Part shown: positions 8,168 through 51,175 of the stretch, piece by piece
Layout of the letters: each line of letters opens with the position of its first letter
Numbering within the stretch: the stretch's first letter is position 1
Origin: Pyrinomonadaceae bacterium
GTDB lineage: Bacteria; Acidobacteriota; Blastocatellia; Pyrinomonadales; Pyrinomonadaceae
DNA length: 64,000 nt
Reading direction: 5' to 3'
NCBI GenBank assembly: GCA_963759665.1
Contig: CAVXAC010000002.1
Span: 482,995 to 546,994, forward strand
The notes under the pieces: generated by a model
Told to the model about the DNA's origin: nothing
The model's database searches: none
Seen by the model: the letters and a program-made list of their open reading frames with translations, nothing else
Translations under genes and position numbers: made by a program

Positions 8168-8223
8168 ATTGCTGATTGCTGAATGCCCGACATTCGAAAT
8201 CCGAAGTTCGAATTTCGAAATCT
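8168..8223. repeat. period-7 tandem array between wza and wzc
   Basis: GATTGCT GATTGCT GAATGCC CGACATT CGAAATC CGAAGTT CGAATTT CGAAATC. The units contain TTCGAA palindromes. Confidence 0.8.
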
Positions 8224-8236
8224 GTGAGGTGAGATT

Positions 8237-10723
8237 ATGAAACCATCAGATGAATTGATGAAACGACCGGCTGATCCCGCAGCCCTCGATCGTCCAAACG
8301 AATACACCTGGTCGCCGGCCGGCTATAACTACGGTGTTGATCCAAACGCCGAAACAGAAGTCCACCTCCTCGATTATTGGAGAGCTGTTCGCAAGCGACT
8401 GTGGCTCGTTTTGGGTGTGGTTGCGCTCATTACGGCGCTCACCGTGCTCTACGTGGCGCGTAAGCCTGACATTTATCAAGCCAGCTCTCGAGTCCAGATT
8501 GACCTGGAAAACAATGCCGCGCTAATTGGCAAGACTCCCTACCTGTTTGGTCCGAGCAACGATCCTGTCTACTTCAACACGCAGTTACAGATTCTTGAAA
8601 GTCCGGGACTCATGCGGCGCGTAGTGAGGTCGCTCGATCTCGAGCACAATCCCGACTTCTTCAAGGGAAACTCAACCCAGAAACGGACTACCTGGCAGAC
8701 CGTCAAGGGGATGTTTGGACTAAAGGTGAATGATGCTCCCGCTCCTTCCGCAAGACCCAAAGATGAACTTCCCTTGCGCACCGTGGTCGCTGAACAAACC
8801 GCTAAAGAAGATCTGGTAGAAGCCAAACGGGTGAGCCCATTTGTGGCTTCAATACTGGGCGGGCTGCGCATCGATCCGGTAAAGGAGTCGCGTGGTGCGT
8901 ATAAGGAAACGCGTCTCATCGACATCAGCTACACGCACGGCGATCCCGATGTAGCCGCCAAAGTGGTGAACGCGATTGCGGAGACCTATGTAGCAAACAA
9001 CGTCGAGAAAAGGAGTGACACAAACATCAGTACGGCTGATTTTCTGCAAAAGAGAATTGCCGAATTGCAGGAAAATATCCGCACAGACGAAGAGCGTCTG
9101 CTTAACTACGCCAGAAACAACAAGATCATTTCTCTTGACGCCGGGCAAAACACGGTAGTCGAGAGGCTGACTGCTCTTAACAAGCAGTTGCTGGACGCTG
9201 AGAATGCTCGCATCGAGGCCGAATCCAGATTTAATGCCGCCCGAACTGGAAATGCTGCAAACGCGTTGGCCGATGCCGATGCGAAACAGGCTAGCGAATC
9301 AGAAGGCAAGCTGGCGGAGTTGCGCCAGAAGCGCGTGTTGCTATTGGTAGACGCAACCGAAGAGGCGCCGGAAGTGAAAGAGGTTAATCAGCAGATCGCC
9401 GAGCTCGAGCGTCAGGCGGCTGAGACCCGCAAGAACAAGAGCACCAACATTCTGCAAAACCTGGAGACCGCCTATCGCCAGACACTCGGCCGCGAACAGG
9501 CTTTGCGTCGAGCGTTTGAGCAGTCGCGCAGTGAAACGGTAACGCAGAACGAAGCAGCTATTAACTACCGCATCATCCAACAGGAAATTGAGACCAACAA
9601 AACCTTGCTCGATAGCTTGCTTTCTCGCTCCAAAGAGAACGATGTGCTGACAGCAAACAAGCCGAATAACGTTTCAGTGGTTGACTACGCAATTCCTCCA
9701 ACTGGACCAGTTGGTCCAAACCGCACCAGGACGGTCTTCATGGCGATGTTCCTGGCGCTTGGTTTAGGCGTGGGGTTGGCTTTGTTTCTTGAGTACCTCG
9801 ATGACACAGTGCGGTCAAGCGAAGAAGTCGAACGCGTGCTTCACCTCGCCGCCCTCGCGGTCATCCCTTCAGCCAGCGGCTCGATGGGCCGTCGCTTGCG
9901 ATCCGCTCCCGGTGCACTGCAAAAGCGTAACGGAAACGGAAACGGCAACGGCATCGGCCACGGGAGTCTCAATCCCGAGCTGCTGATGAATGTAGACAGC
10001 CACTCGCCGCTGGCGGAGTCATACCGTCAGTTGCGCACCTCGGTGTTGCTTTCAACTGCCGGACGAGCGCCGAAATCACTCTTAGTTACTTCGAGTCTTC
10101 CGGGAGAAGGGAAGACCACGACCGCAGTGAACACTGCAATCAGCCTGGCCCAGACGGGCGCCAGCGTCGTCATCATCGACGCGGACATGCGCCGGCCGCG
10201 TCTACGCTCGATTTTCGGATTGTCTGAACGGGCTGGTTTAAGCTCAGTACTCTCGAGCGAAGTTTCTCCTCAGGACATGCTTTCGATGATCGCGAAGGAC
10301 GCATCCACCGGCTTGCACGTTTTGACCTCCGGACCTATCCCACCAAACCCTGCAGAATTGATTGGCTCTGATCAAATGCGCCGGCTAATCGCGACGCTGC
10401 AAGGTGAATTCACACATGTTGTGATCGATTCGCCGCCGATTACGTCATTCACAGACGGCGTGCTGATTGCGACCATGGTTGATGGCGTGTTGCTGGTGGT
10501 CCATGGCGGAAAGAGTTCGCGAAAAGTGGTTAGGCGTTCGCGACAGTTGCTGATGGACGTGGGCGCCAAGATCTTCGGCGTCGTACTCAACAAGGTCAAT
10601 CTCCAGTCCCACGATTACTACTACTACAACAAAGGCTACTACGCCGCCCGTGGTTACAAGACCGACGTCGATGAGGAAGAGACGACCGAGCAGGCGGCTG
10701 CCCCTGGAGTCCTGAATCTGTGA
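8237..10723 (+). CDS. wzc: polysaccharide co-polymerase / BY-tyrosine kinase (Wzc/GumC-like PCP-2a)
   Basis: 828 aa. Wzz-type N-terminus with a TM segment and a long coiled-coil periplasmic region. Kinase domain has Walker A PGEGKTTTA, A' VIIDADMRRP and B VVIDSPP. C-terminal Tyr cluster HDYYYYNKGYYAARGY. Confidence 0.93.
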   Translation: MKPSDELMKRPADPAALDRPNEYTWSPAGYNYGVDPNAETEVHLLDYWRAVRKRLWLVLGVVALITALTVLYVARKPDIYQASSRVQIDLENNAALIGKTPYLFGPSNDPVYFNTQLQILESPGLMRRVVRSLDLEHNPDFFKGNSTQKRTTWQTVKGMFGLKVNDAPAPSARPKDELPLRTVVAEQTAKEDLVEAKRVSPFVASILGGLRIDPVKESRGAYKETRLIDISYTHGDPDVAAKVVNAIAETYVANNVEKRSDTNISTADFLQKRIAELQENIRTDEERLLNYARNNKIISLDAGQNTVVERLTALNKQLLDAENARIEAESRFNAARTGNAANALADADAKQASESEGKLAELRQKRVLLLVDATEEAPEVKEVNQQIAELERQAAETRKNKSTNILQNLETAYRQTLGREQALRRAFEQSRSETVTQNEAAINYRIIQQEIETNKTLLDSLLSRSKENDVLTANKPNNVSVVDYAIPPTGPVGPNRTRTVFMAMFLALGLGVGLALFLEYLDDTVRSSEEVERVLHLAALAVIPSASGSMGRRLRSAPGALQKRNGNGNGNGIGHGSLNPELLMNVDSHSPLAESYRQLRTSVLLSTAGRAPKSLLVTSSLPGEGKTTTAVNTAISLAQTGASVVIIDADMRRPRLRSIFGLSERAGLSSVLSSEVSPQDMLSMIAKDASTGLHVLTSGPIPPNPAELIGSDQMRRLIATLQGEFTHVVIDSPPITSFTDGVLIATMVDGVLLVVHGGKSSRKVVRRSRQLLMDVGAKIFGVVLNKVNLQSHDYYYYNKGYYAARGYKTDVDEEETTEQAAAPGVLNL

Positions 10724-10737
10724 ACTGGCGCGGAGCG

Positions 10738-10988
10738 CCGCAAAGGGCGAAGGGCGAAGCATCGCTGGTTCTACTGAACGCGGACATGCGGCCACATTTT
10801 CGATTTGAAGACTTGGAGATATGGCACCTTGCCAGGGGACTCGCAGTCAAGCTTCACCAGTAGAACAGGCGAGATCGATCCGTTGTTGGTTGACTGCGAT
10901 ATGTTGAGTCGCAAGATTACAAACTTTTCAAGGAGTCTCGGCCCAGGGAAATAGCGCAGCCCTTTGCTCTTAGCCCTTCGCCCTTTGC
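10738..10988. mobile_element. IVS-like hairpin cassette with AAGGGCG-repeat arms carrying an internally deleted four-helix-bundle gene
   Basis: Left arm CAAAGGGCGAAGGGCGAAGC (10741-10760) is complementary to right arm GCCCTTTGCTCTTAGCCCTTCGCCCTTTGC (10959-10988). The interior is homologous to both ends of the 13476-13838 gene. Confidence 0.55.
10786..10954 (+). pseudogene. four-helix-bundle protein (23S rRNA IVS protein family) remnant, internal deletion plus frame change
   Basis: MRPHFRFEDLEIWHLARGLAVKLHQ-stop aligns with the N-terminus of the intact paralogue. GEIDPLLVDCDMLSRKITNFSRSL (another frame) aligns with its C-terminus. The central part is missing. Confidence 0.8.
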
Positions 10989-10994
10989 TCGAAC

Positions 10995-11999
10995 ATGAAA
11001 AAGGCTCTAATCACCGGCATCACTGGCCAGGACGGTTCTTACCTGGCTGAGTTGCTTCTTAACAAAGGCTACGAAGTGCACGGCATTATCCGGCGCGCTT
11101 CAACTTTCAATACCGGTCGCATAGATCATCTCTACGCAGACCCACACATAAACGGTGTGCACCTGTTCCTTCATTATGGGGACATCGCTGATTCGACCAA
11201 TCTCATAAAGCTGATTTATCGCATTCAACCCGACGAGGTTTATCACCTGGCGGCACAGAGCCATGTGCGCGTTAGCTTTGATATTCCGGAGTACACCGGC
11301 GATGTCACCGCGCTCAGTACCATCCGAATCCTCGAAGCGATTCGCGAAACGGGTGTCAACTCACGATTTTATCAGGCCAGTAGCTCCGAAATGTTCGGCA
11401 AGGTCCATGAGGTTCCTCAAAGAGAGACCACGCCGTTTTACCCGCGCTCGCCGTACGGCGCAGCCAAAGTCTACGCGTACTGGTCCACCGTCAATTATCG
11501 CGAGAGCTATGGGCTCTTCGCCTGCAACGGAATTCTGTTTAATCATGAAAGCCCGCGACGGGGCGAGACGTTTGTTACACGCAAAGTGACGCGCGCTGCC
11601 GCACGCATCAAGGCCGGACTCCAGGATAAGCTCTATCTTGGCAACCTCGAAGCCAAGCGAGATTGGGGCTATGCGAAGGAATACGTTGAGGCTATGTGGC
11701 TCATGCTGCAACAGGACCAGCCTGACGACTATGTGATTGCGACGGGTGAAACACATTCTGTCCAGGAGTTTGTTGAAGCAACATTTTCCGCTCTCGATCT
11801 TGATTGGGAAAAATACGTCGAGATCGATCCAAAGTATTACCGGCCGGCCGAGGTTGATCTGCTGGTGGGCGATGCCAGCAAGGCCAAGCGCCTACTGAAT
11901 TGGGAGCCAACCACCACCTTCAAAGGCCTGGTGGATCTGATGGTTGACGCCGACATGGCCGAAGTTGCGACCCGTGAACTCCAGCCGCAGCGTGTTTGA
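10995..11999 (+). CDS. gmd: GDP-mannose 4,6-dehydratase
   Basis: 334 aa with [37 protein letters not shown] and [15 protein letters not shown], all hallmark Gmd motifs. Confidence 0.95.
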
Positions 12000-12000
12000 C

Positions 12001-12436
12001 TGTCCGACATGCTCGAATGTCCGACATGCTTCAGCTTGTCGCCAACAATTAAGATTTCAAGCTACGATTTCAGAAAAACCACTGTTGAGTGTCACGTCCC
12101 TCACGACAAGCTGAAGCATGTCGAACGGCTTTGCACAAAAAGTCGCGGTTGGTTGGGTTAGCATGTACATTCACAAAGTATGGCCCAGGTGTGGTTACGC
12201 GAAGCGATCTCATTAACACCGCGGCTTTAGCCCGGTGTTCACAGGGCATGGCAAGTTTTCCTAACCGTTTTAACGGTTTACAGTCGCCCGCTAAAAAACC
12301 GTTGAAACGGTTACCCTCCTTTTGCAGGCCGCGTGATCACCGGGCTGAAGCCACGGTGTTAATGAGATCGCTTCGCGTCAACCTGGATCGGAGTTTTTGT
12401 CCAAGGCTATGTCGAACATTAAGCATGTCGAACATT
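12001..12436. repeat. nested palindromic element in the gmd-fcl gap
   Basis: Outer arms: 2 x TGTCCGACATGCT (12001-12030) vs 2 x ATGTCGAACA (12409-12436). A 23-bp stem pairs 12018-12041 with 12104-12126. A near-perfect 39-bp inverted repeat pairs 12199-12237 with 12338-12376 and encloses two small palindromes (AACCGTTTTAACGGTT, AACCGTTGAAACGGTT). Confidence 0.75.
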
Positions 12437-12445
12437 TGATCACCA

Positions 12446-13438
12446 ATGCCTGAGTCAACTTTCCCTTACCAGAAAATAGTGGTCACCGGCGGCGCAGGCT
12501 TCCTCGGTCAGCGCGTAGTCGCGAAACTTAAAACGTATCAGGACGTCGAAGTCTTTGTTCCACGCAGCGCAGACTACAACCTCGTCGAAATGGCCGACGT
12601 AAAAAGGCTGTACGCGGACACCAGGCCCGACTTGGTCATCCACCTCGCTGCGGTAGTCGGCGGCATCGGCGCCAACCAGAAAAACCCCGCGAAATTCTTT
12701 TACGAAAACCTGATGATGGGCACGCAGTTAATTGAACAGGCCCGTTTGAATGGCGTGCGAAAATTTGTCGCGGCGGGCACTGTTTGCGCTTATCCAAAGT
12801 TCACCCCGGTGCCGTTCAAGGAAGACGACCTCTGGAACGGCTATCCTGAAGAGACAAATGCGCCCTATGGCCTGGCGAAAAAGATGATGCTGGTCCAGGC
12901 GCAAAGCTATCGCGAACAATACGGCTACAACGCCGTCTTCCTGCTGCCCGCAAATCTCTATGGGCCAAACGACAATTTTGATTTGGAAAGCTCTCACGTG
13001 ATCCCGGCGCTGATTCGCAAGTGCGTGGAAGCGCGTCGTAACGACGCCGAGTTCATCGAAGTGTGGGGAACCGGAAACGCCTCGCGTGAATTTCTTTACG
13101 TGGACGACTGCGCCGACGCGTTTGTGCGTGCCGCCGCAGATTACGACGAATCCGAGCCCGTCAACATCGGAGTTGGCAGCGAGATCACTATCCGCGACCT
13201 CGTAAATTTGATCACAAGGCTCACTGGTTTTGAAGGCGAGATCAGATGGCAAACCGACAAGCCAGACGGCCAACCACGCCGCTCCCTCGACGTCAGTCGC
13301 GCATACGAAAAGTTTGGCTTCAGAGCGCAGACCACGTTCGAAGAAGGACTGCGTAAGACGATCGAGTGGTATGAAGCGCAAAGCGCCAAGAGCCAAGGGC
13401 AAAGAGCTAAGGGCGAACAAGCAAGGGCAACGGGCTAA
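12446..13438 (+). CDS. fcl: GDP-L-fucose synthase (GDP-4-keto-6-deoxymannose 3,5-epimerase/4-reductase)
   Basis: 330 aa with [28 protein letters not shown] and HVIPALIRK, directly after gmd. The last ~17 codons ([17 protein letters not shown]) are encoded by the repeat arm of the next element. Confidence 0.9.
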
Positions 13439-13854
13439 GGGCAAAGCAAAAATTACTACCGCGAGATAGCAAAAAATGCGACCTCACTTTCGATTTGAAG
13501 ACTTGGAAATATGGCAACTTGCCAGGGTGATGGCGGTAAAGCTACACAAGCTCGCCGACGATTTGGAGAAGAAGCGACTCTATCGTTATGCCGAGCAGTT
13601 AAGAGCAGCCGGATTGTCGCTGACAAATAATATAGCGGAGGGATCAGGGAGTACTCATTCGCGAGAGTTTCAGCAGTTTCTTAACATCGCGCGGCGATCC
13701 CTGTTTGAAGATGCGTCAATGCTGATGGTTTTTGAAAGTCTGGGTCTTTTCAAAGCAGGTGAGATCGATCCCCTTCTGATCGACTGTGACATGCTGAGTC
13801 GCAAGATTACGAACTTCTCGCGGACCCTTAGCTCTTAGCGCTTCGCCCTTAGCC
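13389..13854. mobile_element. IVS-like hairpin cassette with period-7 (GGCNAAG) arms carrying an intact four-helix-bundle gene
   Basis: Left arm is 8 heptamers (AGCCAAG GGCAAAG AGCTAAG GGCGAAC AAGCAAG GGCAACG GGCTAAG GGCAAAG, 13389-13447). Complementary right arm is CCTTAGC TCTTAGC GCTTCGC CCTTAGC (13825-13854). Confidence 0.6.
13476..13838 (+). CDS. four-helix-bundle protein (23S rRNA intervening-sequence protein family, PF05635/TIGR02436-like)
   Basis: 120 aa with FEDLEIWQLA, LTNNIAEGSGS and FLNIARRSLFE, characteristic of this family. Confidence 0.85.
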   Translation: MRPHFRFEDLEIWQLARVMAVKLHKLADDLEKKRLYRYAEQLRAAGLSLTNNIAEGSGSTHSREFQQFLNIARRSLFEDASMLMVFESLGLFKAGEIDPLLIDCDMLSRKITNFSRTLSS

Positions 13855-13861
13855 GACTCTA

Positions 13862-14704
13862 ATGACGGAAACATTCGACCTACAGATTGAAGCCGGTCAC
13901 ACGGAGAAGCACTACTGGGCCGATCTGTGGCGCTACCGTGAACTGTTCTACATCCTGGCCTGGCGCGATGTGGCGGTGCGTTACAAGCAGACGGTTGCCG
14001 GTGCTGCCTGGGCGCTTCTTCAGCCACTGCTCAGCATGCTGATCATGACGGTCATCTTCGGCAAGATCGCCGGCCTGCCGTCTGAAGGAAACGCGCCCTA
14101 CGCGATCATGGTTTTCGCAGCCATGCTGCCGTGGCAGTTCTTTGCGAACGCACTGTCGTCGTCGAGTCAGAGTGTAGTTAGCAACGCGCAACTCATTTCA
14201 AAGATCTATTTTCCGCGCCTGATCATCCCCACCAGTTCGGTAGTCGTTTCCCTAATCGACTTTGCGATTGCTTTTTCGATCCTGGCCGCATTGATGGTCT
14301 GGTATCAGTTCATGCCCAGTTGGCGCCTGGTAACCCTGCCGTTGTTCGTGTTGCTGGCGATCATCGCCGCCTTAGGTCCGGGTCTGATCATCACGGCGTT
14401 GACGGTTCGCTACCGCGACTTTCGCATCGTGATTCCGTTTGTGGTCCAGTTTGGTTTGTATGTGAGCCCGGTGGCCTATAGCACAGCGGTGGTGCGTGGG
14501 AAGTTGGGCGACACTCTGTTCCTGCTCTACTCGCTGAATCCGATGGTGGGCGTGATCGATGGATTCCGTTGGGCCATCCTCGGCGGCGCCAGCCAACTCG
14601 ATCCGCGCGGTTTCACTCTTTCTGTCGTGCTGAGTCTGATTCTCCTTTTTATCGGCATCTGGTACTTCCGCAAAACCGAACGCGTCTTCGCGGATGTGAT
14701 CTGA
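13862..14704 (+). CDS. wzm: ABC-2 type polysaccharide exporter permease (Wzm/TagG/KpsM-like)
   Basis: 280 aa with six predicted TM segments. N-terminal YRELFYILAWRDVAVRYKQT and KIYFPRLIIP are typical of ABC-2 permeases. Confidence 0.9.
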   Translation: MTETFDLQIEAGHTEKHYWADLWRYRELFYILAWRDVAVRYKQTVAGAAWALLQPLLSMLIMTVIFGKIAGLPSEGNAPYAIMVFAAMLPWQFFANALSSSSQSVVSNAQLISKIYFPRLIIPTSSVVVSLIDFAIAFSILAALMVWYQFMPSWRLVTLPLFVLLAIIAALGPGLIITALTVRYRDFRIVIPFVVQFGLYVSPVAYSTAVVRGKLGDTLFLLYSLNPMVGVIDGFRWAILGGASQLDPRGFTLSVVLSLILLFIGIWYFRKTERVFADVI

Positions 14705-14707
14705 GAA

Positions 14708-14896
14708 CAGAAGTCAGAAGTCAGAAGGCAGAAGTCAGAAGTCAGAAGTCAGAAATCGACGAGCGAATGACATCAATGGTTGTGCAGATAATTAGCCCGG
14801 TTAATGCTTGCGGGTTGGGAAGAACGAATTCTGCCTTCTGACTTCTGACTTCTGACTTCTGACTTCTGACTTCTGACTTCTGACTCCTGACTCCTG
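14708..14896. repeat. empty giant hairpin: 7 x GAAGTCA vs ~9 x TTCTGAC around a ~70-nt loop
   Basis: Tandem heptamers at 14708-14757 are reverse-complementary to tandem heptamers at 14829-14896. A T6 run follows, then the wzt ATG at 14907. Confidence 0.85.
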
Positions 14897-14906
14897 TTTT
14901 TTCTTC

Positions 14907-16245
14907 ATGTCCGTAGTAATCAGCGTCGAGAACCTCGGCAAGAAATACACCATCGGTCGCAACGGCGCCGGCACGGACGGACTGCGTCACGCTATCCATG
15001 ATTTCTTCGCCTCACCGTTTCGTCGCCTTGGTCAGCCGGCACCTGACACCCGAAACCTGACACCGGATCTGACTTCTGACCTCCGACCTCTGACCTCTGG
15101 TTCCGAAGACTTCTGGGCCCTCAAAGACGTCTCCTTCGAAGTGAAGCAAGGCGAAGTCGTCGGCATCATCGGCCGCAACGGCGCAGGGAAGTCAACGCTG
15201 CTGAAGATCCTGAGCCGCATCACCGAGCCGACCACCGGTCGACTACGCATCCGCGGCCGCGTCGCCAGTCTGCTTGAGGTAGGCACCGGCTTTCATCCCG
15301 AGCTAACCGGCCGCGAAAACATCTTTCTCAACGGCGCCATCCTCGGCATGAGTCGCGCCGAGATCAAACGCAAGTTCGACGAGATCGTCGCCTTCGCCGA
15401 AGTCGAACAATTCCTGGACACGCCCGTTAAGCGTTACTCCATCGGCATGTACGTCCGCCTCGCCTTCGCCGTCGCCGCCCACCTGGAACCGGAGATATTG
15501 ATCGTCGACGAAGTGCTGGCGGTCGGCGACGCTCAGTTTCAGAGAAGTGCCTGGGCAAGATGAACGAAGTGCCCGACAGCGGGCGGACGGTGCTCTTTGT
15601 CAGCCACAGATGAGCGCGGTCGAGGAACTGTGTGCGCGAGCGATCCTCCTGAACCACGGCTCCATTGAACGCTCCGGCGCGACTCATGATGTGGTGGCCC
15701 ATTACCTCACCTCGGCGCTCGCTAAATCGGGCGCGCAGATTGGTGGAGAGGCGGAGCGCGAGGGCACCGGAAATGCGCGCATTACCAAGCTCGAGTTGCT
15801 TGCCGCCGAAACCGATTCGCCGATCGGTACGCTGACTTTTGGGCAGTCCTTTCGCCTCCGCCTTCACTATCGCGCTTCGAAGCGCCTGTCTGACCCGCGT
15901 TTCGGATTTGCCTTGCAGTCGGACAAGGGTGAGCGCGTGTTCCAGACCGAAACAACAGAAATTAACTATCGGATACCGGCCATTGAAGGTGACGGCTGGT
16001 TCGACTGTCTCGTGAAGTCGCCGAATATTCTGCCGGGCCTCTTCTATCTCGAAGCCTGGATCATCGAGCAGGTGAACGTTGCTTTCGCCGACCACTTGTT
16101 TAGAGCGGCGCGGATTGAGATTGACGTCGACCCCGTTCTGCAACATCAATTGACCTATCTTACATATCCCGGGCGGGGCCGTGTCTTTATGGACTGTCAG
16201 TGGTCGCACGCCGAACAAACTAACGAAGTGTATGCTGCGAGATAA
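14907..16245 (+). pseudogene. wzt: ABC polysaccharide exporter ATPase (Wzt/TagH-like) with C-terminal glycan-binding domain, two frameshifts
   Basis: Walker [13 protein letters not shown], signature [11 protein letters not shown], Walker [13 protein letters not shown]. The frame is lost at ~15543 and ~15607. The corrected reading is QFQ(K)[18 protein letters not shown](Q)MSAVEEL. The C-terminal 200 aa look like a Wzt_C jelly-roll. Confidence 0.8.
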
Positions 16246-17197: not shown

Positions 17198-17204
17198 ACT
17201 AACC

Positions 17205-17724
17205 ATGAGACATTTCTCAACTCACGGAAGTGGCGAGGTCAACCGTGAGCATTTTCGTAAGCTTGGCGAGAACGTGATCTTTGAGGCTGGCGTGCTTGTT
17301 TTTCACGCTGACCATATCGAAGTGGGCTCCAATGTTTACGTGGGCCATTATTCGATCCTAAAGGGATACTACAAAGGTCAGATGGTCATAGGCGACGACG
17401 TGTGGATCGGTCAACAGGTGTTTCTTCATAGTGCCGGCGGACTCTTTATAGGCGACCGGGTCGGCCTTGGTCCAGGGGTCAAGATCATTACTTCCTATCA
17501 CCGTGAAGAGGGTAGGCAAAAGCCAATTCTGGACAGCGCTCTCGAATTCGCAACCGTGACTGTTGGCGCAGATTGTGACCTCGGCGCGGGTGCGGTCATC
17601 CTTCCTGGCGTGACGATTGGGAAAGGGGTCCAGATCGGAGCTGGTGCTGTAGTTACCGATGATGCCGGACTACATGGTAGCGGCTGGTGTCCCTGCTAAA
17701 GTAATTCGCGAGCGAGCTCAATGA
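17205..17724 (+). pseudogene. left-handed beta-helix (hexapeptide) acetyltransferase, 3' frameshift
   Basis: Hexapeptide repeats (IGDDVWIGQQV, IGDRVGLGPGV, VGADCDLGAGAVI, IGKGVQIGAGAVV). The conserved end PDYMVAAGVPAKVIRERAQ-stop is in the +1 frame from ~17660, and its TGA overlaps the next ATG. Confidence 0.75.
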
Positions 17725-39505: not shown

Positions 39506-39652
39506 GACTCCTGGCAGTACAGGCGAGCGGAAGAGCCGGGATAAGTCCTCCTTCCCGACTGTGAGAGAACTCAGAACTGGGATGAAACCGAGATTGGAGA
39601 AGCGGGAAGCTGAGAAGCGACGTGCTGAGGAGCTGTTGATGCTTGTGCATCT

Positions 39653-40775: not shown

Positions 40776-40788
40776 GCCTCAATGCAGT

Positions 40789-42068: not shown

Positions 42069-42936
42069 TCGGATCACCCCACTCATCCTGACTTACAACG
42101 AAGCGCCAAACATCGGCCGCGTGTTGGACCGACTTGGGTGGGCGCGTGACATCGTAGTAGTCGATAGCTTCAGTGATGACGACACGCTCGAGATCGTGTC
42201 GCGTTATTCCTCAGCACGCGTGATTCAAAGAGAGTTTGACGCCCACGCAAAACAGTGGGAGTTTGGGCTTAAGGAGACAGGAATAGCTTCTGAGTGGGTG
42301 TTAGCTCTGGATTCCGACTATGTATTGACGCCTGAATTTATAGAGGAACTAAGAGCGCTCAACCCGACGGCCGACGTTCAGGGCTACTGTGCGCACTTCA
42401 CCTATTGCATCAATGGCCGCAAGTTGAGAAGCGGAGTCTATCCGCCGGTGACAGTCCTTTATCGACGAGAGGCCGCTACGTACATTCAGGATGGACACAC
42501 CCATCGAGTTGTCGTGGACGGAAAGATTGAAAACCTCAGTGCCAAAATTCTGCACGATGACCGCAAGCCACTCAGTCACTGGTTTGCAGCCCAGTCGCGT
42601 TACACCGAACTGGAAGCGGAAAAGCTTCGGTCCGTAGAACCGGCGAGTTTGGGCTGGAAGGATCGGATGCGCCGGTGGCGGATAGTCGCGCCCCCGGCGA
42701 TGTTGCTTTATTGCCTGATCGTTCGTGGTGGCGTGTTCGACGGTTGGGCCGGATTTTATTACGCCTTTCAACGAGCCCTCGCCGAGCTGATGCTGTCGCT
42801 CCGGTTGTTCGAAAGCAAAGGGGTAAGAGCCGAGAGCGAAGAGGCAGAGCCCATCAGAGGGGAAGGGGGAAGGGGTAAAAGGGAAAGCGCAATCGTTGAA
42901 GCGAAGCCACGCGAGGGATCTGCGCTTGTTCCCTAG
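42061..42936 (+). CDS. family-2 glycosyltransferase
   Basis: ITPLILTYNEAPNIGRVL, VVVDSFSDDDT, ALDSDYVL. The last ~30 codons (EEAEPIRGEGGRGKRES...) are encoded by the repeat arm of the next hairpin. Confidence 0.82.
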   Translation: MLDRITPLILTYNEAPNIGRVLDRLGWARDIVVVDSFSDDDTLEIVSRYSSARVIQREFDAHAKQWEFGLKETGIASEWVLALDSDYVLTPEFIEELRALNPTADVQGYCAHFTYCINGRKLRSGVYPPVTVLYRREAATYIQDGHTHRVVVDGKIENLSAKILHDDRKPLSHWFAAQSRYTELEAEKLRSVEPASLGWKDRMRRWRIVAPPAMLLYCLIVRGGVFDGWAGFYYAFQRALAELMLSLRLFESKGVRAESEEAEPIRGEGGRGKRESAIVEAKPREGSALVP

Positions 42937-43014
42937 CTTTCCTTTTACCCATACTTGCTTCGCGTCTTTTAACCCCGTTTCGCTTGACCCTTTCCCCTTC
43001 GCCCTTCGCCCTTA
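42857..43014. repeat. empty hairpin with period-7 GGGGAAG / CGCCCTT arms
   Basis: GAGGGGA AGGGGGA AGGGGTA AAAGGGA AAGC (42857-42888) is complementary to GCTTTCCTTTTACCC (42936-42950) and CCCTTTC CCCTTCG CCCTTCG CCCTTA (42988-43014). Confidence 0.75.
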
Positions 43015-43025
43015 GCACCTAACCT

Positions 43026-45056
43026 ATGTGTGGAATCTGCGGAGTAATTGATTGGTCCGAGTCTCCCGACGCACCGGGGATCGTGCGTCGAATGACGCCG
43101 ACGATGAAACATCGTGGGCCAGACGACGAAGGAATTTCGGATTTCGGAATGCGGAATTCGGATTGGGGGCTAAGCGCAGAGGGCGAAGGGCAAAGGGTTA
43201 GCGAGCGAAGAGTTTCGATTGGGATGCGTCGCCTAAGCATTATTGACGTTGAAGGTGGGCACCAGCCGATGTTCAATGCCGACCGCACTGTGGCCGCAGA
43301 GCTTAACGGCGAGATCTACAACTTCCAGTCGCTGCAACAACAGTTGAGAGAGCGCGGCCACGTCTTCCACACAAGGTCAGATTCTGAGGTTGTCGCCCAC
43401 GCTTATGAAGAATGGGGCGCTGAGTGTGTCGAAAAATTTGAAGGAATGTTTGCAGTCGCAGTGTGGGACGGGCGCGCGGGGCAGGAAGCAGGAGGCGGGA
43501 CGCTGTTTTTGGCGCGGGACAGGATGGGGATTAAGCCGCTGTATTACTACGCCGGGAAAAGCAAACAGCAAACAGGCAACGGCGATCAGCTAGCCGAAAA
43601 TAGGAAGTGCTTTCTTTTCGCTTCGGAAGTACGAACGATTCTGGCAAGTGGCGTTGTTGGGCGCAGGCTTTCGCCGGAAGCCCTGGAAAGCTATTTGTTG
43701 TTTGGTTCAGTGAGTGAGCCAATGACACTTGTTGAAGGTGTGCTTTCGATTCCACCGGGACACCGGATGACCGTCACCTACGGAACTTCTGTCAGTATCC
43801 CCCAGCCTGAGCCTTACTGGACCATCCCCGGACGAACCACGACATCAGGAAATGGCTACGTAAAAGCGACTGATATTGACTCCGCCGCGGTAAAGGTCAG
43901 GGAACTGCTTGAAGCAAGTGTGCGGAAACACCTGATTGCTGATGTGCCGGTTGGTGTTTTCTTGAGCGGCGGAATTGATTCGACCGCGCTCGCCGGACTG
44001 GCGGCGAAGGAGTCAGCAGGGATCCACACGTTTACAGTGGCGTTTGCCGAAGAGGAGTTTAGCGAAGCCGACATCGCCAGGCGCACTGCAGCTACGCTTG
44101 GCACAACCCACCAGGAAGTCATGTTAACCGGCGGCGAGATGCTGGCCCGGATGGACCAGGCGGTTAGCTCTTTGGACCAGCCGTCCATGGACGGCATCAA
44201 TACCTACTTCGTATCGCAGGCGGCGCGAGAGGCGGGTTTAAAAGTTACCCTATCGGGGCTGGGTGGGGACGAAGTTTTTGGCGGCTATGAAACGTTTGCG
44301 CGCACTCCTACGCTCGAAAAAATCGGAGGTGCTGGCGGCAAGATGCCGCGTCGAGTGCGCGAAGCCGTGGCAAGTGTGGCCGGTGGCGCCGCCGGAATGC
44401 GCGCCCGCGGAGACGTGGTACGGAAGATGACGGCGTTGTGGAACGACAGCGCGTCGTTGCCACATCCATACTTTTTTGGTCGTGCACTTTTTACCCCGCT
44501 GCAGGTTAGCGAGTTGTTAACGAAACAAAGCGGAAAGAATGGAAACTCACTTTGGTGGAATTGGCTATCGGACAGCGCTGCTCGCTCGCGGAATTTCGAT
44601 CAGTTCAGTGCGGTGACTTGTTTGGAATCCCAGTCTTATCTGGTGAACACATTGCTCCGCGATACCGATTCGATGAGCATGGCGCATTCGCTCGAAGTTC
44701 GCGTTCCGTTTCTCGATCATCCATTGGTGGAGTTTGTGACGCAGCTTCCGCAGGAACTGAAACTGCAAAAAGGTCGGACAAAGTCGTTGTTGGTTCGCGC
44801 ACTGTCGGATCTATTGCCGGTGGAGGTGCTTGGAGAAAAGCGTGGATTTACTTTTCCGTGGTCCAGCTGGTTGCAGGGACCGCTGAAGGAACGCCTGGAC
44901 GAGGGCTTTGACAACTTTGCTCCGGCACTCCGAGAAGCAATGAACCAGGAGAGCGTTAAGACAATTTGGCGCGACTATCTGAGCGGAAAGACGAGTTGGT
45001 CGCGCCCCTGGAGTCTTTACGTGCTCAACGAATGGGTGAAGCGCAACCTGAGTTAG
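43026..45056 (+). CDS. asparagine synthase (glutamine-hydrolysing) family amidotransferase with three low-complexity insertions
   Basis: 676 aa with MCGICG, HRGPDD, RRLSIIDVEG, LARDRMGIKPLYY and the PP-loop FLSGGIDST. Insertions relative to the paralogue at 27773 are described in the findings. Confidence 0.9.
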   Translation: MCGICGVIDWSESPDAPGIVRRMTPTMKHRGPDDEGISDFGMRNSDWGLSAEGEGQRVSERRVSIGMRRLSIIDVEGGHQPMFNADRTVAAELNGEIYNFQSLQQQLRERGHVFHTRSDSEVVAHAYEEWGAECVEKFEGMFAVAVWDGRAGQEAGGGTLFLARDRMGIKPLYYYAGKSKQQTGNGDQLAENRKCFLFASEVRTILASGVVGRRLSPEALESYLLFGSVSEPMTLVEGVLSIPPGHRMTVTYGTSVSIPQPEPYWTIPGRTTTSGNGYVKATDIDSAAVKVRELLEASVRKHLIADVPVGVFLSGGIDSTALAGLAAKESAGIHTFTVAFAEEEFSEADIARRTAATLGTTHQEVMLTGGEMLARMDQAVSSLDQPSMDGINTYFVSQAAREAGLKVTLSGLGGDEVFGGYETFARTPTLEKIGGAGGKMPRRVREAVASVAGGAAGMRARGDVVRKMTALWNDSASLPHPYFFGRALFTPLQVSELLTKQSGKNGNSLWWNWLSDSAARSRNFDQFSAVTCLESQSYLVNTLLRDTDSMSMAHSLEVRVPFLDHPLVEFVTQLPQELKLQKGRTKSLLVRALSDLLPVEVLGEKRGFTFPWSSWLQGPLKERLDEGFDNFAPALREAMNQESVKTIWRDYLSGKTSWSRPWSLYVLNEWVKRNLS

Positions 45057-45459
45057 TTTCGAGTTTCAAGTTCAAGTCTCAATTCAAGAACAAGCCGGAT
45101 ACAAGTTTTTGGAGAAGTTCACCCTGCAGCCGCTCAACCTTCCGCCTCCTTCAGGAGAATGCTATGGCTACGTTTAATAGGTTCGAAGAAATTGAATGCC
45201 GGCAAAGGCTCGAGAGCTGACTCGTGGGATTTATCACATTACAAATTATCCTGCTTTTGCTCGTGACTTTGGATTGAAGGATTAGATCCGCAGAGCAGCC
45301 GTGTCGGTGATGTCAAACATAGCGGAGGGCTATGATCGAAGTGGCACGGCGGAATTAATTCATTTCCTCGCTACTGCTCGGGACTCTGGATACAAGGGAA
45401 CGAAATTCAAGTCGGCGGCTTCGGATGTAACTTGAAACTTGAAACCTGGAACCTGGAAC
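45057..45459. mobile_element. IVS-like hairpin cassette with TTCAAG/CTTGAAA-repeat arms carrying a decayed four-helix-bundle gene
   Basis: Left arm GTTTCGAGTTTCAAGTTCAAGTCTCAATTCAAG (45057-45089). Right arm CTTGAAA CTTGAAA CCTGGAA CCTGGAA C (45431-45459). Confidence 0.55.
45164..45430 (+). pseudogene. four-helix-bundle protein (23S rRNA IVS protein family) pseudogene, frameshifted and 3' truncated
   Basis: MATFNRFEEIECRQ.., LTRGIYHITNYPAFARDFGLKD and IRRAAVSVMSNIAEGYDRSGTAELIHFLATA are readable only by switching frames. The last helix is missing. Confidence 0.75.
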
Positions 45460-45460
45460 T

Positions 45461-48923: not shown

Positions 48924-48937
48924 CGTGCGACTTGTCA

Positions 48938-49017
48938 AGCAAACTGTTAGTTTGCTGATCGTTCAATAAAGGCTTGATGTGGTCCTAAGGGCGACGTACG
49001 CAAACTAACAGTTTGCG
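48938..49017. repeat. pair of mutually complementary 19-nt palindromes upstream of the second gmd
   Basis: AGCAAACTGTTAGTTTGCT (48938-48956) and CGCAAACTAACAGTTTGCG (48999-49017). Same palindrome as inside the carbamoyltransferase CDS. Confidence 0.9.
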
Positions 49018-49028
49018 TTACAAAATAG

Positions 49029-50033: not shown

Positions 50034-50083
50034 TAGACAGTGCGCGCTTCAGAGTTCCAGAGTCGATCGGCTGACCCTAACAC

Positions 50084-51019
50084 ATGAGAATAATAGTCAC
50101 CGGCGGCGCCGGATTTATCGGCTCACATCTTTGTGAGCGTTTGTTACAAAACGGAGATGACGTCATCTGTGTCGATAATTTTTTTACCGGGCGACGATCC
50201 AATATCATCCACCTGTTTGACAATCGTAACTTTGAAGTTGTTCGTCACGACGTAATTGAGCCGATCCTTTTGGAAGTGGACCAGATCTACAACCTCGCGT
50301 GTCCGGCGTCGCCGATTCACTATCAATACAATCCGGTCAAGACAGTGAAGACCAGCGTGATGGGCACCATCAACATGCTGGGACTCGCCAAGCGCGTCCA
50401 CGCGCGTATTCTTCAGGCCTCGACATCGGAGGTCTATGGCGATCCCGAAGTACATCCGCAACCGGAGGAGTATTGGGGTAACGTAAATCCAATCGGAGTG
50501 CGCTCTTGTTACGACGAAGGTAAGCGTCTGGCGGAAACACTGATGATGGATTACCACCGCCAAAATAAAGTCGATACCCGCATCGCCAGGATCTTCAATA
50601 CCTATGGCCCACGCATGTGTGAAAATGATGGCCGTGTCGTCTCAAACTTCATCGTGCAGGCTTTGCGTGGCGAGCCGCTTACACTTTACGGCGCCGGCGA
50701 TCAGACTCGTTCGTTCTGTTACGTCGATGATCTGGTTGAAGCCTTGATCCGGTTGATGAATATCGACAACGTTCACGAGCCGGTAAATTTGGGTAACCCT
50801 GTAGAGTTTACAATCAAAGAACTGGCTGAAGCGGTGTCGGCAATGTGCGGCGTGAGCTCACACTTCAATTATCTACCGCTTCCGCAAGATGATCCGAAGC
50901 AGCGCAGACCAGACATCACCCGCGCACAAGCGCTGTTAGGTTGGGATCCAACGATTCAACTGAAAGAAGGGCTGGAAAAGACGGTTGCGTATTTCCGGAT
51001 GACGAAGACTGAAGGATGA
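50084..51019 (+). CDS. UDP-glucuronate decarboxylase (UDP-xylose synthase family SDR)
   Basis: 311 aa with [38 protein letters not shown] and [10 protein letters not shown]. Confidence 0.85.
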
Positions 51020-51077
51020 GAGAAAGATTTTCCAATCTCATGTGTCATTTCTCATTAGTCACTGCCGGGGGCTGGCG

Positions 51078-51175
51078 GCAGATTTCGCAGATTAAGAACA
51101 AGTGGACCAGCGCCGTTTCATTTTCGCCGGTCGTCGTTTGATCTGAATAATCTGCATAATCCGTGTAATCTGCGG
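51078..51175. repeat. hairpin element with GCAGATT-type repeat arms
   Basis: GCAGATTTCGCAGATTAAG (51078-51096) vs CTGAATAATCTGCATAATCCGTGTAATCTGCGG (51143-51175). The right arm has a 9-nt period (TAATCTGCA TAATCCGTG TAATCTGCG). Confidence 0.7.

Follow-up and report, generated by a model that had tools for sequence, protein, structure and literature searches.

The inverted heptamer arrays between the genes of this polysaccharide export locus are, as we read them with moderate confidence, copies of an intervening-sequence-type cassette at varying stages of decay, situated in operon mRNA instead of 23S rRNA, where a stem would loop out the cargo. The composition of the elements, the pairing potential of their arms, their placement and their insertional nature were observed; by the window we mean the whole stretch of 64,000 nt analysed here. 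This kind of element is known already. The elements are thus no new architecture but a variant of a known one in a new setting.

Composition of the elements

All eight sites of the initial annotation were present at their positions. The features are as follows (evidence in brackets).

8167..8221, + strand: gene-less heptamer arrays, Wza|Wzc spacer (TRF, sequence)
10738..10988, + strand: element E1, Wzc|GMD spacer (tblastn, HMM, inverted repeat, fold)
12001..12442, + strand: element E2, GMD|epimerase spacer (sequence, inverted repeat, fold)
13374..13447, + strand: E3 5' arm, (AAGRGCR)n, about 10 units (TRF, sequence)
13476..13838, + strand: intact PF05635/TIGR02436 four-helix-bundle gene, 120 aa, cargo of E3 (Pfam, NCBIfam)
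13825..13854, + strand: E3 3' arm, (CCCTTAG/CGCTTCG)n (TRF, sequence, inverted repeat)
14708..14896, + strand: element E4, gene-less hairpin, ABC-2 permease|Wzt ATPase spacer (TRF, sequence, fold)
15040..15099, + strand: in-frame heptamer array (TCTGACC-type), N-terminal linker of the Wzt ATPase (TRF, sequence, pairing)
42857..43022, + strand: element E5, gene-less hairpin, GT2|AsnB spacer (TRF, sequence, fold)
43130..43200, + strand: in-frame arrays (ATTTCGG)n and (GGGCGAA)n, asnB (sequence, pairing)
45057..45460, + strand: element E6, AsnB|carbamoyltransferase spacer (sequence, Pfam, HMM)
51078..51175, + strand: element E7, weak gene-less hairpin, epimerase|GT4 spacer (TRF, sequence, fold)

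A full cassette would consist of a PF05635/TIGR02436 gene of ~360 nt between two inverted arrays of 7-nt units, about 30 nt per arm, inserted, in sense orientation, where a short spacer separates two operon genes. E3 would represent this intact state. The epimerase ORF extends into its 5' arm and gains a repeat-encoded C-terminal tail of about 19 aa, and its 3' arm takes in the final codons of the PF05635 gene together with the stop, finishing 7 nt short of the ABC-2 permease start codon. The arms (13385-13413/13825-13853) are 83% complementary and form 25 arm-arm pairs in the minimum-energy fold. For the protein we obtained E = 3.5e-24 against Pfam and E = 1.3e-23 against TIGR02436; the closest solved structure is 2GSC, and among 3107 homologues the top matches were 82-93% identical. 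Comparing the gene copies we found a pN of 0.09-0.17 and a pS of 0.80-0.98 (synonymous sites saturated), and because purifying selection is this strong we conclude that the protein is functional.

E1 and E6 would be copies that have lost the middle of the gene and retained a pseudogene, respectively. In E1 the arms (AAGGGCG)n at 10738-10760 and (CGCCCTT)n at 10959-10988 (95% complementary over 10740-10759/10969-10988; 19 arm-arm pairs; fold z = -2.7) enclose a frameshifted PF05635 gene with an internal deletion at 10786-10939. Here 10786-10860 corresponds to aa 1-25 and 10862-10939 to aa 93-118; the remnant was matched by HMM, and by tblastn it shares 84% amino-acid identity with the intact E3 copy. 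The arms of E6, (GTTTCRA)n at 45057-45089 and (AACTTGA/AACCTGG)n at 45429-45460, lie 0-1 nt from the flanking stop and start codons. Between them a PF05635 pseudogene of a different subfamily runs from 45164 to about 45400. It is interrupted by an in-frame stop and by a frameshift, and its 3' end is truncated; its repaired reading still matched Pfam with E = 6e-19. The E6 stem is weak (fold z = -0.65). The neighbours of the three PF05635 copies are Wzc, GMD, epimerase, ABC-2 permease, AsnB and carbamoyltransferase. The initial annotation had missed this protein-coding cargo, a gene or remnant enclosed by three of the pairs.

E4, E5, E7 and the array at 8167 would be arms only. The arms of E4, (CAGAAGT)7 and (TTCTGAC)10 at 14708-14757/14829-14896, are 94-98% complementary around a loop of 71 nt (45 arm-arm pairs, fold z = -9.9). 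In E5 the G-rich arm (42857-42888) is translated as the tail of the GT2 ORF and the C-rich arm (42936-43022) finishes 3 nt short of the asnB start codon; complementarity is 73% over 42856-42885/42938-42967, with 28 arm-arm pairs and a fold z of -4.5. The segment 42987-43022 has a second partner within asnB (43163-43198). The asnB arrays at 43130-43200 form an insert of about 18 aa relative to the homologue in locus L013, and the second of them is 83% complementary to 42987-43022, which places the asnB start codon inside the stem (fold of 42980-43205: z = -7.5). E7 has 9-nt units, GCAGATTNN and TAATCTGCN, a fold z of -1.1 and a looser placement, 58 nt past the stop codon and 25 nt short of the start codon.

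At 8167..8221 three copies of GATTGCT are followed by five of CGAAATY, beginning 3 nt past the Wza stop codon and finishing 15 nt short of the Wzc start codon. The initial annotation called this array (8168-8223) unpaired. The reverse complement of its unit TTCGAAA (8188-8221) is a rotation of the unit itself, so the array is able to self-pair, but its fold was no better than that of shuffled sequences (z = -0.5). The same junction carries a PF05635 gene in four other loci (L004, L006, L029, L041).

E2 would occupy the same kind of position with different arms and a cargo not matching PF05635. The arms have a 13-nt unit (12001-12041/12409-12442; 86% complementary over 12010-12031/12421-12442), and the interior holds a nested 54-nt inverted repeat (12197-12250/12325-12378). 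Its fold has a z of -15, and Pfam, Rfam and PF05635 searches of the cargo left no trace. E2 begins 1 nt past a stop codon and finishes about 4 nt short of a start codon, and in L033 the GMD|epimerase junction carries a PF05635 gene. Searches for PF05635 remnants in E2, E4, E5 and E7 gave no trace; we infer that all four derive from gene-bearing copies, on the grounds of their common architecture, their position and the intermediates E1 and E6.

Repeat period and pairing of the arms

We counted exact repeats of at least two copies plus 3 nt and compared periods 4 to 12. The window contains 10 period-7 arrays and 0-3 arrays for each other period, in line with the mostly 7-nt period reported for it. 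Block-shuffled sequence yielded a mean of 0.045 period-7 arrays with a maximum of 1, an enrichment of ~200-fold. The arms of seven sites are complementary, at five pairs by 73-98%, and in all 7 elements they pair with each other in the minimum-energy fold, which bears out the inverted pairing. The arm-arm duplex energy was better than all 200 shuffles for five elements. For the remaining two the expectation of folding beyond shuffled controls stood less well: the E6 duplex (45057/45431) was equalled in 23/200 shuffles and the E7 duplex (51078/51143) in 3/200.

The unit sequence does differ between sites, as the initial annotation had it, but it is not free: AAGGGCG is present at four sites, and CGAAATT occurs at 8188 and again, inverted, at 43134. 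Heptamer arrays also lie in frame within genes (15040-15099, 43130-43200 and 45734-45765). Of the gaps in the window that measure 40 nt or more, roughly 36 in all, about 8 contain such arrays, and the description of hairpins filling the intergenic gaps was therefore overstated. Ordinary microsatellites, terminators and CRISPRs had been correctly ruled out. The chance that the arrays are microsatellites or assembly artefacts that pair by coincidence is practically nil. Tandem arrays do grow by slippage, and copy number varies among close relatives (PMC4990558), but the enrichment is confined to period 7 (10 arrays against 0.045 expected), the complementary pairing far exceeds the controls, and the arrays are tied to one gene family across phyla and in finished genomes. 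This explanation is refuted by the pairing controls, the fold tests and the period-7 counts. An assembly artefact, which the initial annotation had considered, is excluded because the architecture repeats in >100 independent assemblies, among them finished records from cultured strains.

Placement and insertion at operon junctions

At 54 of 67 loci the PF05635 gene ran in the direction of both its neighbours, and at 1 it opposed both. The median distance from the upstream stop codon to the start of the 5' arm is 3 nt, and that from the end of the 3' arm to the next start codon is 9 nt; empty orthologous junctions measure 8-31 nt. For the permease|ATPase junction we compared 56 orthologues. The presence/absence polymorphism that the initial annotation had raised was confirmed here, with 33 junctions empty, 11 intermediate (including the gene-less tandem-arm hairpins of L100 and L147) and 12 large, of which 5 hold PF05635. 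Across loci, this junction carries the gene in L014, L020-L023, L074, L083, L105, L131, L140 and L144. The closest relatives differ at this site, one junction being empty and one bearing a hairpin of a different unit; L082, a close relative, carries a gene-less hairpin here whose unit is not that of E4. Because orthologous junctions are mostly empty, these comparisons identify the elements as insertions. Promoter and terminator scans found no excess, the promoter scan covering sigma-70-type sites. The cassette has no recognisable sigma-70-type promoter and would be transcribed within the operon mRNA.

Some of these observations would also be expected if the arms acted on DNA, which we consider possible but unlikely. 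The arms would then be ends of a non-autonomous mobile element, whether MITE-like or hairpin/cruciform ends that a separately encoded enzyme recognises, or they would supply portable homology for recombining polysaccharide-gene cassettes, and the RNA stem would be a by-product. Presence and absence at orthologous junctions, different units at one junction in close relatives and copy numbers that vary between near-identical Nostoc plasmids are consistent with this, as is the occurrence of one protein subfamily at Wza|Wzc, Wzc|permease, permease|ATPase and GMD|epimerase. E1 and E3, with 84% amino-acid identity, flank a GMD-epimerase block that is missing from the closest relatives. A comparison of G.U with A.C mismatches in the arms (64 vs 58) revealed no sense-strand bias; DNA-level pairing accounts for the arms equally well. 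However, no transposase, integrase or recognisable target-site duplication adjoins any copy, and both the sense bias (54 vs 1) and the precision relative to stop and start codons are expected of mRNA, not of DNA ends. Saturated synonymous sites between copies further suggest that most are old residents and not recent hops. A role at the DNA level is compatible with the mRNA cassette, as some DNA- or RNA-level mobility must exist.

Flanking repeats across phyla

We surveyed 74 testable relatives of the E3 gene from at least five phyla (Acidobacteriota, Verrucomicrobiota, Desulfobacterota, Bacteroidota and others), a biased sample since the loci were found through similarity to the window's own proteins. 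At 69 of these 74 loci the flanks contain an inverted repeat that exceeds the 95th percentile of shifted controls, and the best arm period was 7 or 14 at 61/74 loci compared to 28/391 controls. The same inverted heptamer flanks accompanied 11/13 plasmid copies from cyanobacteria and Riemerella. Repeat units taken independently from each flank are complementary to each other, the 5' arm is always G-rich and the median arm length is 30 nt. The repeat unit tracks the protein subfamily, which the initial annotation had missed: we obtained a Spearman correlation of -0.58 for all pairs and -0.36 across different phyla. The heptamer sequence is conserved within a PF05635 subfamily, and on this basis one may speculate that the protein recognises its own arms.

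If so, the arrays could be candidate binding sites of the PF05635 protein, for which a solved relative is a pentameric ring, within a self-regulating or RNA-protecting module whose orphan arrays are bound in trans by protein made from gene copies at other genomic sites. We regard this as rather improbable. The unit is kept within a subfamily despite synonymous saturation, across phyla too, the protein is under strong purifying selection, an arm of about 30 nt corresponds to 4-5 units, and Avd relatives bind nucleic acid and reverse transcriptase (PMC10053308), with weak bAvd matches found here. Co-inheritance of gene and arms would, however, give the same covariation; gene-less hairpins persist in the window, and in Coxiella the RNA element persists with an ORF that is reported to be decaying and probably untranslated (PMC4990558).

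Relation to known systems and proposed mechanism

The initial annotation was right in naming rRNA intervening sequences and STRR repeats as precedents, and these are closer than precedents: the elements carry or once carried the IVS gene family PF05635. The 23S rRNA IVS with an S23p ORF (Leptospira, Coxiella burnetii and others) has a cargo of this family, and its terminal inverted repeats form a stem around the ORF as in the present elements. In Coxiella the IVS combines the S23p ORF with a 28-bp terminal stem, contains tandem GACAGAT heptamers of strain-dependent copy number in the 5' part of the stem region and is excised by RNase III in vitro (PMC4990558). The host RNA differs, being the polycistronic mRNA of a polysaccharide export locus here (no rRNA was found in the window), as does the insertion point, an intercistronic spacer compared to helix 45. 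The protein is under strong purifying selection here, whereas the Coxiella ORF is reported to be decaying.

The STRR of heterocystous cyanobacteria, including the hupS-hupL hairpins, likewise consist of tandem 7-nt units and form inverted, hairpin-capable arrays in spacers within operons (PMC2670836). In cyanobacteria we found STRR-like heptamer arrays that bracket PF05635 genes on plasmids as inverted pairs, with copy numbers that differ between near-identical Nostoc plasmids; one unit, GAAGTCA, is that of E4. The host here is an acidobacterium (Pyrinomonadaceae) instead, and the three classical STRR units are all absent from the window. Neither the cross-phylum rule nor a link of STRR or STRR-like arrays to PF05635 genes was found in the searched literature.

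Phage T7 early mRNA contains RNase III hairpins between cistrons, at which cleavage has been demonstrated. The likeness lies in a long intercistronic stem within a polycistronic transcript, where a cut would separate the cistrons and leave hairpin ends; the T7 sites, each a unique sequence, have neither tandem-repeat arms nor a cargo gene, and for the present elements cleavage is predicted. MITEs and REP/BIME elements are also short, intergenic, bounded by inverted repeats, present at some orthologous sites and often gene-less. Their sequence is conserved, however, and MITEs have target-site duplications and a parent transposase, neither of which was seen here; the present elements have tandem-array arms, a fixed orientation relative to the operon and a placement exact to the stop and start codons. 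Avd of diversity-generating retroelements has a homologous four-helix-bundle fold and belongs to a homologous family (PMC10053308), and the cyanobacterial PF05635 copies gave weak bAvd Pfam matches. Unlike in Avd systems, no reverse transcriptase or template/variable repeat adjoins any of the three copies here.

In the cassette model we favour, the arms would pair into a stem of 20-50 bp and loop out the cargo. This would return the upstream stop and downstream start codons to within about a dozen nt, as at empty junctions, and so the insertion would be tolerated. By homology with the 23S rRNA element, RNase III would probably act on the stem, cutting the polycistronic mRNA at the junction and freeing the cargo RNA. 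Such processing or insulation, one of the roles raised by the initial annotation, would fit the geometry, namely the sense orientation and a stem bridging stop and start codons, and also the excision of the homologous Coxiella element (PMC4990558). The model gives no account of why the period is 7 nt, why the 5' arm is invariably G-rich or why arrays lie in frame within genes.

It appears decidedly improbable that the hairpins benefit the host as operon punctuation, whether by stabilising mRNA, by attenuation or by translational coupling, with the gene as an occasional passenger. A role of this type has been suggested for the hupS-hupL STRR hairpins (quoted in PMC2670836), gene-less hairpins occupy the same stop/start-bridging positions, and the hairpins of E4 and L082 are followed by a T-rich run ahead of the ATG. 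At asnB, as well as in L083, an intragenic array offers the C-rich arm an alternative partner, and this pairing would sequester the start codon. On the other hand, 33/56 orthologous junctions lack any hairpin, unit and presence change between close relatives, the terminator scan found nothing at the elements, and the tight statistical tie to one gene family is unexpected for a mere passenger. The array within the Wzt ATPase linker (15040-15099) is 84% complementary to the 5' arm of E4, and this linker is rich in repeats in other genomes as well.

The polysaccharide locus and its heptanucleotide arrays

The elements lie in a polysaccharide export and biosynthesis cluster on the + strand, which encodes Wza, Wzc, two GDP-mannose dehydratases (GMD), epimerases, an ABC-2 permease, a Wzt ATPase, glycosyltransferases, asparagine synthases and a carbamoyltransferase. 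Homologues place the host in the Pyrinomonadaceae/Blastocatellia of the Acidobacteriota. Our preferred reading is that the elements are intervening-sequence-type cassettes in the operon mRNA of an acidobacterium, plus decayed derivatives of such cassettes.

The initial annotation had described hairpins with arms made of tandem heptamers, and they are real. Tandem Repeats Finder reported arrays at every site that the annotation listed, with sequences as described. There are 10 exact period-7 arrays (at least two copies plus 3 nt) in the window, compared to 0-3 for each other period from 4 to 12 and a mean of 0.045 period-7 arrays in block-shuffled windows. The further statement that they fill the intergenic gaps was too strong: we found arrays in about 8 of the ~36 gaps of at least 40 nt. 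Two short arrays (30000-30016 and 39597-39620) were set aside on inspection as lying outside the heptamer family, and none of the elements is a CRISPR array.

Elements with inverted-array arms: window positions, arm complementarity where determined, and z-score of the whole-element fold
E1, 10738-10988: arms 10740-10759 and 10969-10988, 95% complementary; z = -2.7
E2, 12001-12442: arms 12010-12031 and 12421-12442, 86% complementary; z = -15
E3, 13374-13854: arms 13385-13413 and 13825-13853, 83% complementary; z = -1.8
E4, 14708-14896: arms 14708-14757 and 14829-14896, 94-98% complementary; z = -9.9
E5, 42857-43022: arms 42856-42885 and 42938-42967, 73% complementary; z = -4.5
E6, 45057-45460: z = -0.65
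E7, 51078-51175: z = -1.1

RNA folding against shuffled sequences had been proposed as a check of the hairpins, and in 7/7 elements arm-arm pairing was part of the minimum-energy structure. When the duplex energy of the arms was compared to 200 shuffles, E1-E5 beat all of them, but the result was weak for E6 (23/200 as good) and E7 (3/200). An eighth site, in the Wza-Wzc spacer, carries lone arrays, of which the one at 8188-8221 had been called unpaired. Its unit can in fact self-pair because the reverse complement of TTCGAAA is a rotation of the same heptamer, although its fold is no better than that of shuffles. Intrinsic terminators were considered as an explanation of the hairpins and rejected: no element contains a terminator-like site, the counts were below the shuffle mean and the loops span 50-400 nt. 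Scans found neither sigma-70-type promoter signals nor terminator-like signals at the elements.

A PF05635 gene between the arms

The initial annotation missed that three of the elements enclose a gene or its remnant as cargo. In E3 the arms bracket an ORF (13476-13838) that belongs to PF05635 (Pfam E = 3.5e-24; NCBIfam TIGR02436 E = 1.3e-23), and the nearest solved relative of its product is 2GSC from Xanthomonas. A tblastn search of the window with the E3 protein revealed a second copy between the arms of E1, of which amino acids 1-25 and 93-118 remain, 84% identical and in two frames. The arms of E6 enclose a third copy of a different kind (45164 to about 45400), damaged by an in-frame stop, a frameshift and a truncated end, whose repaired reading matches PF05635 with E = 6e-19. 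Two HMMs of different breadth, applied to all six frames, detected no further copies and no remnants in E2, E4, E5 and E7; we therefore treat these four elements and the array at 8167 as having no gene.

This "four helix bundle" or "23S rRNA IVS protein" family numbers thousands of homologues, but apart from diversity-generating retroelements it is not known to have a role. We rejected a retroelement of this kind here, as the neighbours of all three PF05635 copies are polysaccharide-pathway genes. PADLOC returned no defence-system match for the PF05635 protein. Between the E3 gene and six full-length relatives the non-synonymous differences amount to 9-17%, whereas synonymous sites have reached saturation (pS 0.80-0.98), which means that the copies are old and that strong purifying selection acts on the protein.

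The interiors of the gene-less elements were compared by BLAST to all fetched loci. The cargo of E2 and the loop of E4 gave no match and the loops of E5 and E7 only short matches at chance level (12-13 nt, E >= 0.2). A 116-aa ORF inside E2 matches nothing in Pfam or NCBIfam and so is probably not a gene. E2 also contains a nested inverted repeat (12197-12250/12325-12378; 54 nt, 89% complementary) whose loop holds two small AACCG...CGGTT hairpins. The region folds very stably (z = -15) and matched neither Rfam nor Pfam nor any of the comparison loci; it may be a structured RNA or a miniature mobile element.

Gene and heptamer arms in other genomes

A scan with the E3 protein, restricted to one genome per species, identified 80 loci in Acidobacteriota, Verrucomicrobiota, Desulfobacterota, Bacteroidota, Omnitrophota, Aerophobetes and others. 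For each locus the 250-nt flank ahead of the gene was aligned to the 250-nt flank behind it in reverse complement, with flanks shifted by 1.2-2.4 kb as controls. The flank score exceeded the 95th percentile of the controls in 69 of the 74 testable loci (median 34.5 compared to 18). A length of 7 or 14 nt was the best self-period of the arm in 61/74 loci, compared to 28/391 controls, and consensus heptamers taken separately from each flank were complementary in nearly all loci.

Plasmids carry the same arrangement. The tblastn search against plasmids yielded 22 records, 18 of them cyanobacterial, mostly from heterocystous genera (Nostoc, Calothrix, Scytonema, Anabaena, Aulosira), and 4 from Riemerella; PF05635 was confirmed for representative copies. 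Inverted heptamer arrays bracket the gene in 11 of the 13 plasmid records examined. In the two exceptions, both from PCC 7120, an insertion sequence abuts the upstream side and only the downstream array is kept. On plasmid pANA02 of Anabaena sp. 90 (L163, 1300-2000) a cassette with long (GGTGACA/GGGAACA)n arms separates cas6 from cas4 in a type I-D CRISPR-Cas operon, and thus PF05635 elements also colonise defence operons.

Heptamer units of gene-bearing loci
Acidobacteria and Verrucomicrobia: AAGRGCR
Flavobacteria: GTTTMAA
Bacteroidales: GCATGGR, GTTTCGR, CGTGTGC
Plasmid, Calothrix: GGGTGTA
Plasmids, Nostoc ATCC 53789 and Geminocystis: GGGAAAA
Plasmid, Anabaena sp. 90: GGTGACA/GGGAACA
Plasmids, N. 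punctiforme, Scytonema and Aulosira: GGAGTCA/GAAGTCA
Plasmids, Nostoc C052 and N. edaphicum: GGGAACA
Plasmid, Stanieria: CAGAAGG
Plasmid, Riemerella: GGTTTAA

The heptamer unit follows the protein. The Spearman correlation between protein identity and unit distance was -0.58 for all pairs and -0.36 for pairs from different phyla, and the mean unit distance was about 2 at protein identities of at least 50% and 3.6 below 40%. Units thus stay alike within a protein subfamily despite saturated sites, and either gene and arms travel together with the unit constrained or the arrays undergo concerted evolution. On the sequences compared, a specific protein-repeat interaction would be one explanation of the unit conservation.

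Two observations on individual plasmids should be added. The near-identical cassettes on the Nostoc C052 and N. edaphicum plasmids (L169 and L170) differ by one unit in their 3' arm (TGTTCCC), a copy-number variation as reported for the Coxiella element. Plasmid pNPUN02 of N. punctiforme (L174) has a gene-bearing cassette at 15234-15636 and also, in a spacer at 19961-20135, a gene-less inverted pair, (CAATTCG)4.7 and (AATTGCG)3.9, ~115 nt apart.

Position and polarity of the arms

The gene is co-directional with both neighbours in 54/67 loci and opposite to both in only 1. The 5' arm starts a median of 3 nt past the upstream stop codon (interquartile range -1 to 10) and the 3' arm ends a median of 9 nt ahead of the next start codon (interquartile range 1 to 22), with a median arm length of 30 nt. 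The window elements keep to the same placement, the gene-less ones and E2 included: the distances to the stop and start codons are 3 and 10 nt for E4, 0 and ~1 nt for E6 and 1 and ~4 nt for E2. In the 5' arm the heptamer is richer in G than in C in 53/53 informative elements and in 33/37 distinct units, and in none is G outnumbered by C. As the arms form an inverted repeat this polarity holds on either strand, and of the two possible arrangements the one with the G-rich arm first is the only one used.

Insertion, turnover and decay

Junctions of the type seen in the window hold the PF05635 gene in other genomes. In Flavobacteria the gene is found repeatedly at sufB-sufC and sufC-sufD of the Fe-S cluster assembly operon (L049-L080 are Flavobacteriia and other Bacteroidota), and in a Riemerella plasmid (L173) the cassette follows an Fe-S assembly accessory gene.

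Comparison loci with a PF05635 gene at junctions of the window type
Wza-Wzc: L004, L006, L029, L041
Wzc-permease: L001, L002, L005, L011
GMD-epimerase: L033
Permease-ATPase: L014, L020-L023, L074

A metagenome scan anchored on the ABC-2 permease instead of the PF05635 gene provided 56 permease-ATPase junctions. Of these 33 are at most 31 nt long. Another 11 measure 40-111 nt, two of them (L100, L147) being gene-less hairpins with tandem-repeat arms, and 12 measure at least 444 nt, five of them with a PF05635 gene. In two loci outside these 12 (L142, L152) the gene follows the permease and the contig ends short of the ATPase. A comparison of orthologous junctions for presence or absence had also been proposed, and it bore the elements out as insertions: of the closest relatives, with permeases 86-87% identical, one has an empty junction and the other a gene-less hairpin. 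The hairpin unit of that relative is (CGAAATT)n/(AATTTCG)n, compared to (CAGAAGT)n/(TTCTGAC)n at the permease-ATPase junction of the window. E1, with its middle deleted, and E6, with its pseudogene, represent intermediate stages on the way from full to gene-less copies. When inverted period-7 pairs were counted strictly in the permease-anchored loci, only two were recovered, the seed rule being too stringent for degenerate arrays.

A MITE with a target-site duplication was rejected as a description of the elements, with no direct repeat visible outside the arms in 22 loci inspected and no transposase beside the window copies. At one permease-ATPase junction (L129:919-1598) we noted two short ORFs that by eye look like an antitoxin and a PIN/VapC-like toxin. 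Small selfish modules in general seem to land in this spacer.

Comparison with known systems

In Coxiella, the homologous 23S rRNA element ends in a 28-bp stem and contains tandem GACAGAT heptamers in numbers that differ from strain to strain; in vitro it is cut out by RNase III, on the 5' side at the first repeat (PMC4990558). RNase III also removes other rRNA intervening sequences (PMC5829567). The window elements share the PF05635/TIGR02436 ORF (intact in E3, remnants in E1 and E6, absent from E2, E4, E5, E7 and the array at 8167), inverted repeats at the ends with a predicted stem around the ORF and, as in Coxiella, tandem heptamers in the stem region, which are general among the related loci (61/74). 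Cargo and stem are thus alike, whereas host RNA and insertion site differ from those of intervening sequences with the S23p gene: all window elements lie between protein-coding genes and none within a 23S rRNA gene. Rfam gave no match at gathering thresholds in the whole window and none at E <= 1 in 8000-15200.

The second comparison is with the short tandemly repeated repetitive (STRR) heptamers of cyanobacteria, whose hairpins are described as having an unknown function, with transcript stability or translational coupling proposed (PMC2670836). Tandem heptanucleotide units in intergenic DNA and hairpin-forming inverted arrays inside operons, of the hupS-hupL type, are common to both, but STRR hosts are heterocyst-forming cyanobacteria whereas the host here belongs to the Pyrinomonadaceae/Blastocatellia. 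Dimers of CCCCAGT, TTGGTCA and CAACAGT, which we take to be the classical STRR units, were absent from both strands of the window.

The initial annotation had named both STRR heptamers and the inverted repeats bounding rRNA intervening sequences as precedents. This instinct was right. The architecture is not without precedent and represents a variant of intervening-sequence-type elements. In the literature searched we found no link between PF05635 and heptamers beyond Coxiella and none between STRR and PF05635, and the general rule of a PF05635 gene with inverted heptamer arrays in operon spacers across phyla is stated in none of the full texts searched; much of the subscription literature fell outside the search and an earlier description is possible.

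Proposed mechanism

Our observations establish composition, pairing potential, sense orientation, codon-precise placement, insertional presence or absence and selection on the protein. We propose that the cassette would be transcribed along with the operon and that its arms would pair into a 20-50 bp stem which loops out the cargo. The stem would bring the stop-start spacing back to ~12 nt, as at empty junctions, and by homology it would be a likely substrate of RNase III. To contrast pairing in sense RNA with pairing in DNA we counted G.U and A.C mismatches in the arms, and the numbers were 64 and 58, probably blurred by the ambiguous register of tandem arms. This neutral count leaves room for a role of the arms at the DNA level, and such a role is probably needed to account for the spread of the elements.

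A much broader reading is tentative and, taken as a whole, rather doubtful. PF05635 genes and inverted heptamer arrays might form a single pan-bacterial class, 'intervening sequences of operon mRNA', in which the stem would restore intercistronic spacing and so make the element self-insulating, and the pentameric protein would recognise its cognate 7-nt repeat. Gene-less heptamer hairpins, including cyanobacterial STRR (unexplained since 1990), and in-frame inserts might then be footprints or trans-dependent derivatives.

Two old puzzles, the function of the PF05635 family and the meaning of heptanucleotide STRR arrays, meet here in one architecture, and the prospect of explaining STRR-type repeats adds to its interest. 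Its interest also rests on regularities that the comparison brought out: a period of 7 nt, a polarity with the G-rich arm first, units that match the protein subfamily and in-frame arrays in neighbouring genes. The fixed period, the G-rich 5' arm, the sense orientation and the codon-precise placement offer handles for experiments, and reporters, RNase III mutants and binding assays are feasible in tractable hosts (the Flavobacterium suf operon, Nostoc/Anabaena plasmids).

Arrays and other features in neighbouring genes

Heptamer arrays also occur in frame within coding genes, in the window at 15040-15099, 43130-43200 and 45734-45765 and elsewhere at L083:2127-2158, L097:2956-2988 and L121:2697-2729. 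Compared to a homologue, AsnB has an insert of ~18 aa from the array at 43130-43200. Arrays also lie in the N-terminal linker of the Wzt ATPase, here and in several other genomes with differing units; in L083 (AGCATGG)4 encodes 'KHGAWSMEHGA'. A (CAGGAGG)n stretch lies in frame in the carbamoyltransferase. The ORFs of the epimerase (13374-13438) and of the GT2 (42857-42936) continue into 5' arms and acquire repeat-encoded C-terminal tails that their homologues do not have, one of them reading 'RGEGGRGKRES...'. For annotation, the cassettes explain such tails and the in-frame low-complexity inserts in neighbour genes, and they repeatedly give rise to broken contigs and gene-calling errors when metagenomes are assembled.

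Just ahead of the start codon of asnB, the C-rich arm at 42987-43022 has two complementary partners, its upstream one and the (GGGCGAA)n array within the gene at 43163-43198. The predicted stem 42987-43022/43163-43198 encloses the asnB start codon and ~45 codons (fold z = -7.5), and this suggests two alternative pairings for the arm. A similar arrangement of arm and intragenic array is present ahead of the Wzt gene in L083.

We noted three further features. The 17-nt perfect palindrome GCAAACTAACAGTTTGC occurs five times compared to 0.13 expected (window 46684-46796 and 48939-49016), with three copies inside the carbamoyltransferase ORF and two in the GT87-GMD spacer. It may serve as a protein-binding site like an operator or represent a small family of repeats. 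The ORF of the Wzt ATPase falls into two frames (ABC domain 14907-15563, Wzt_C domain 15547-16245) and two DegT-type aminotransferase ORFs (17721-18647 and 22258-23025) cover their Pfam profile only in part; these are either real pseudogenes or assembly indel errors. Finally, a 41-nt G+C-rich inverted repeat at 2063-2168 (85% complementary), between convergent genes ending at 2020 (+) and 2165 (mutS, -), resembles a terminator that acts in both directions and has no relation to the heptamer arrays.
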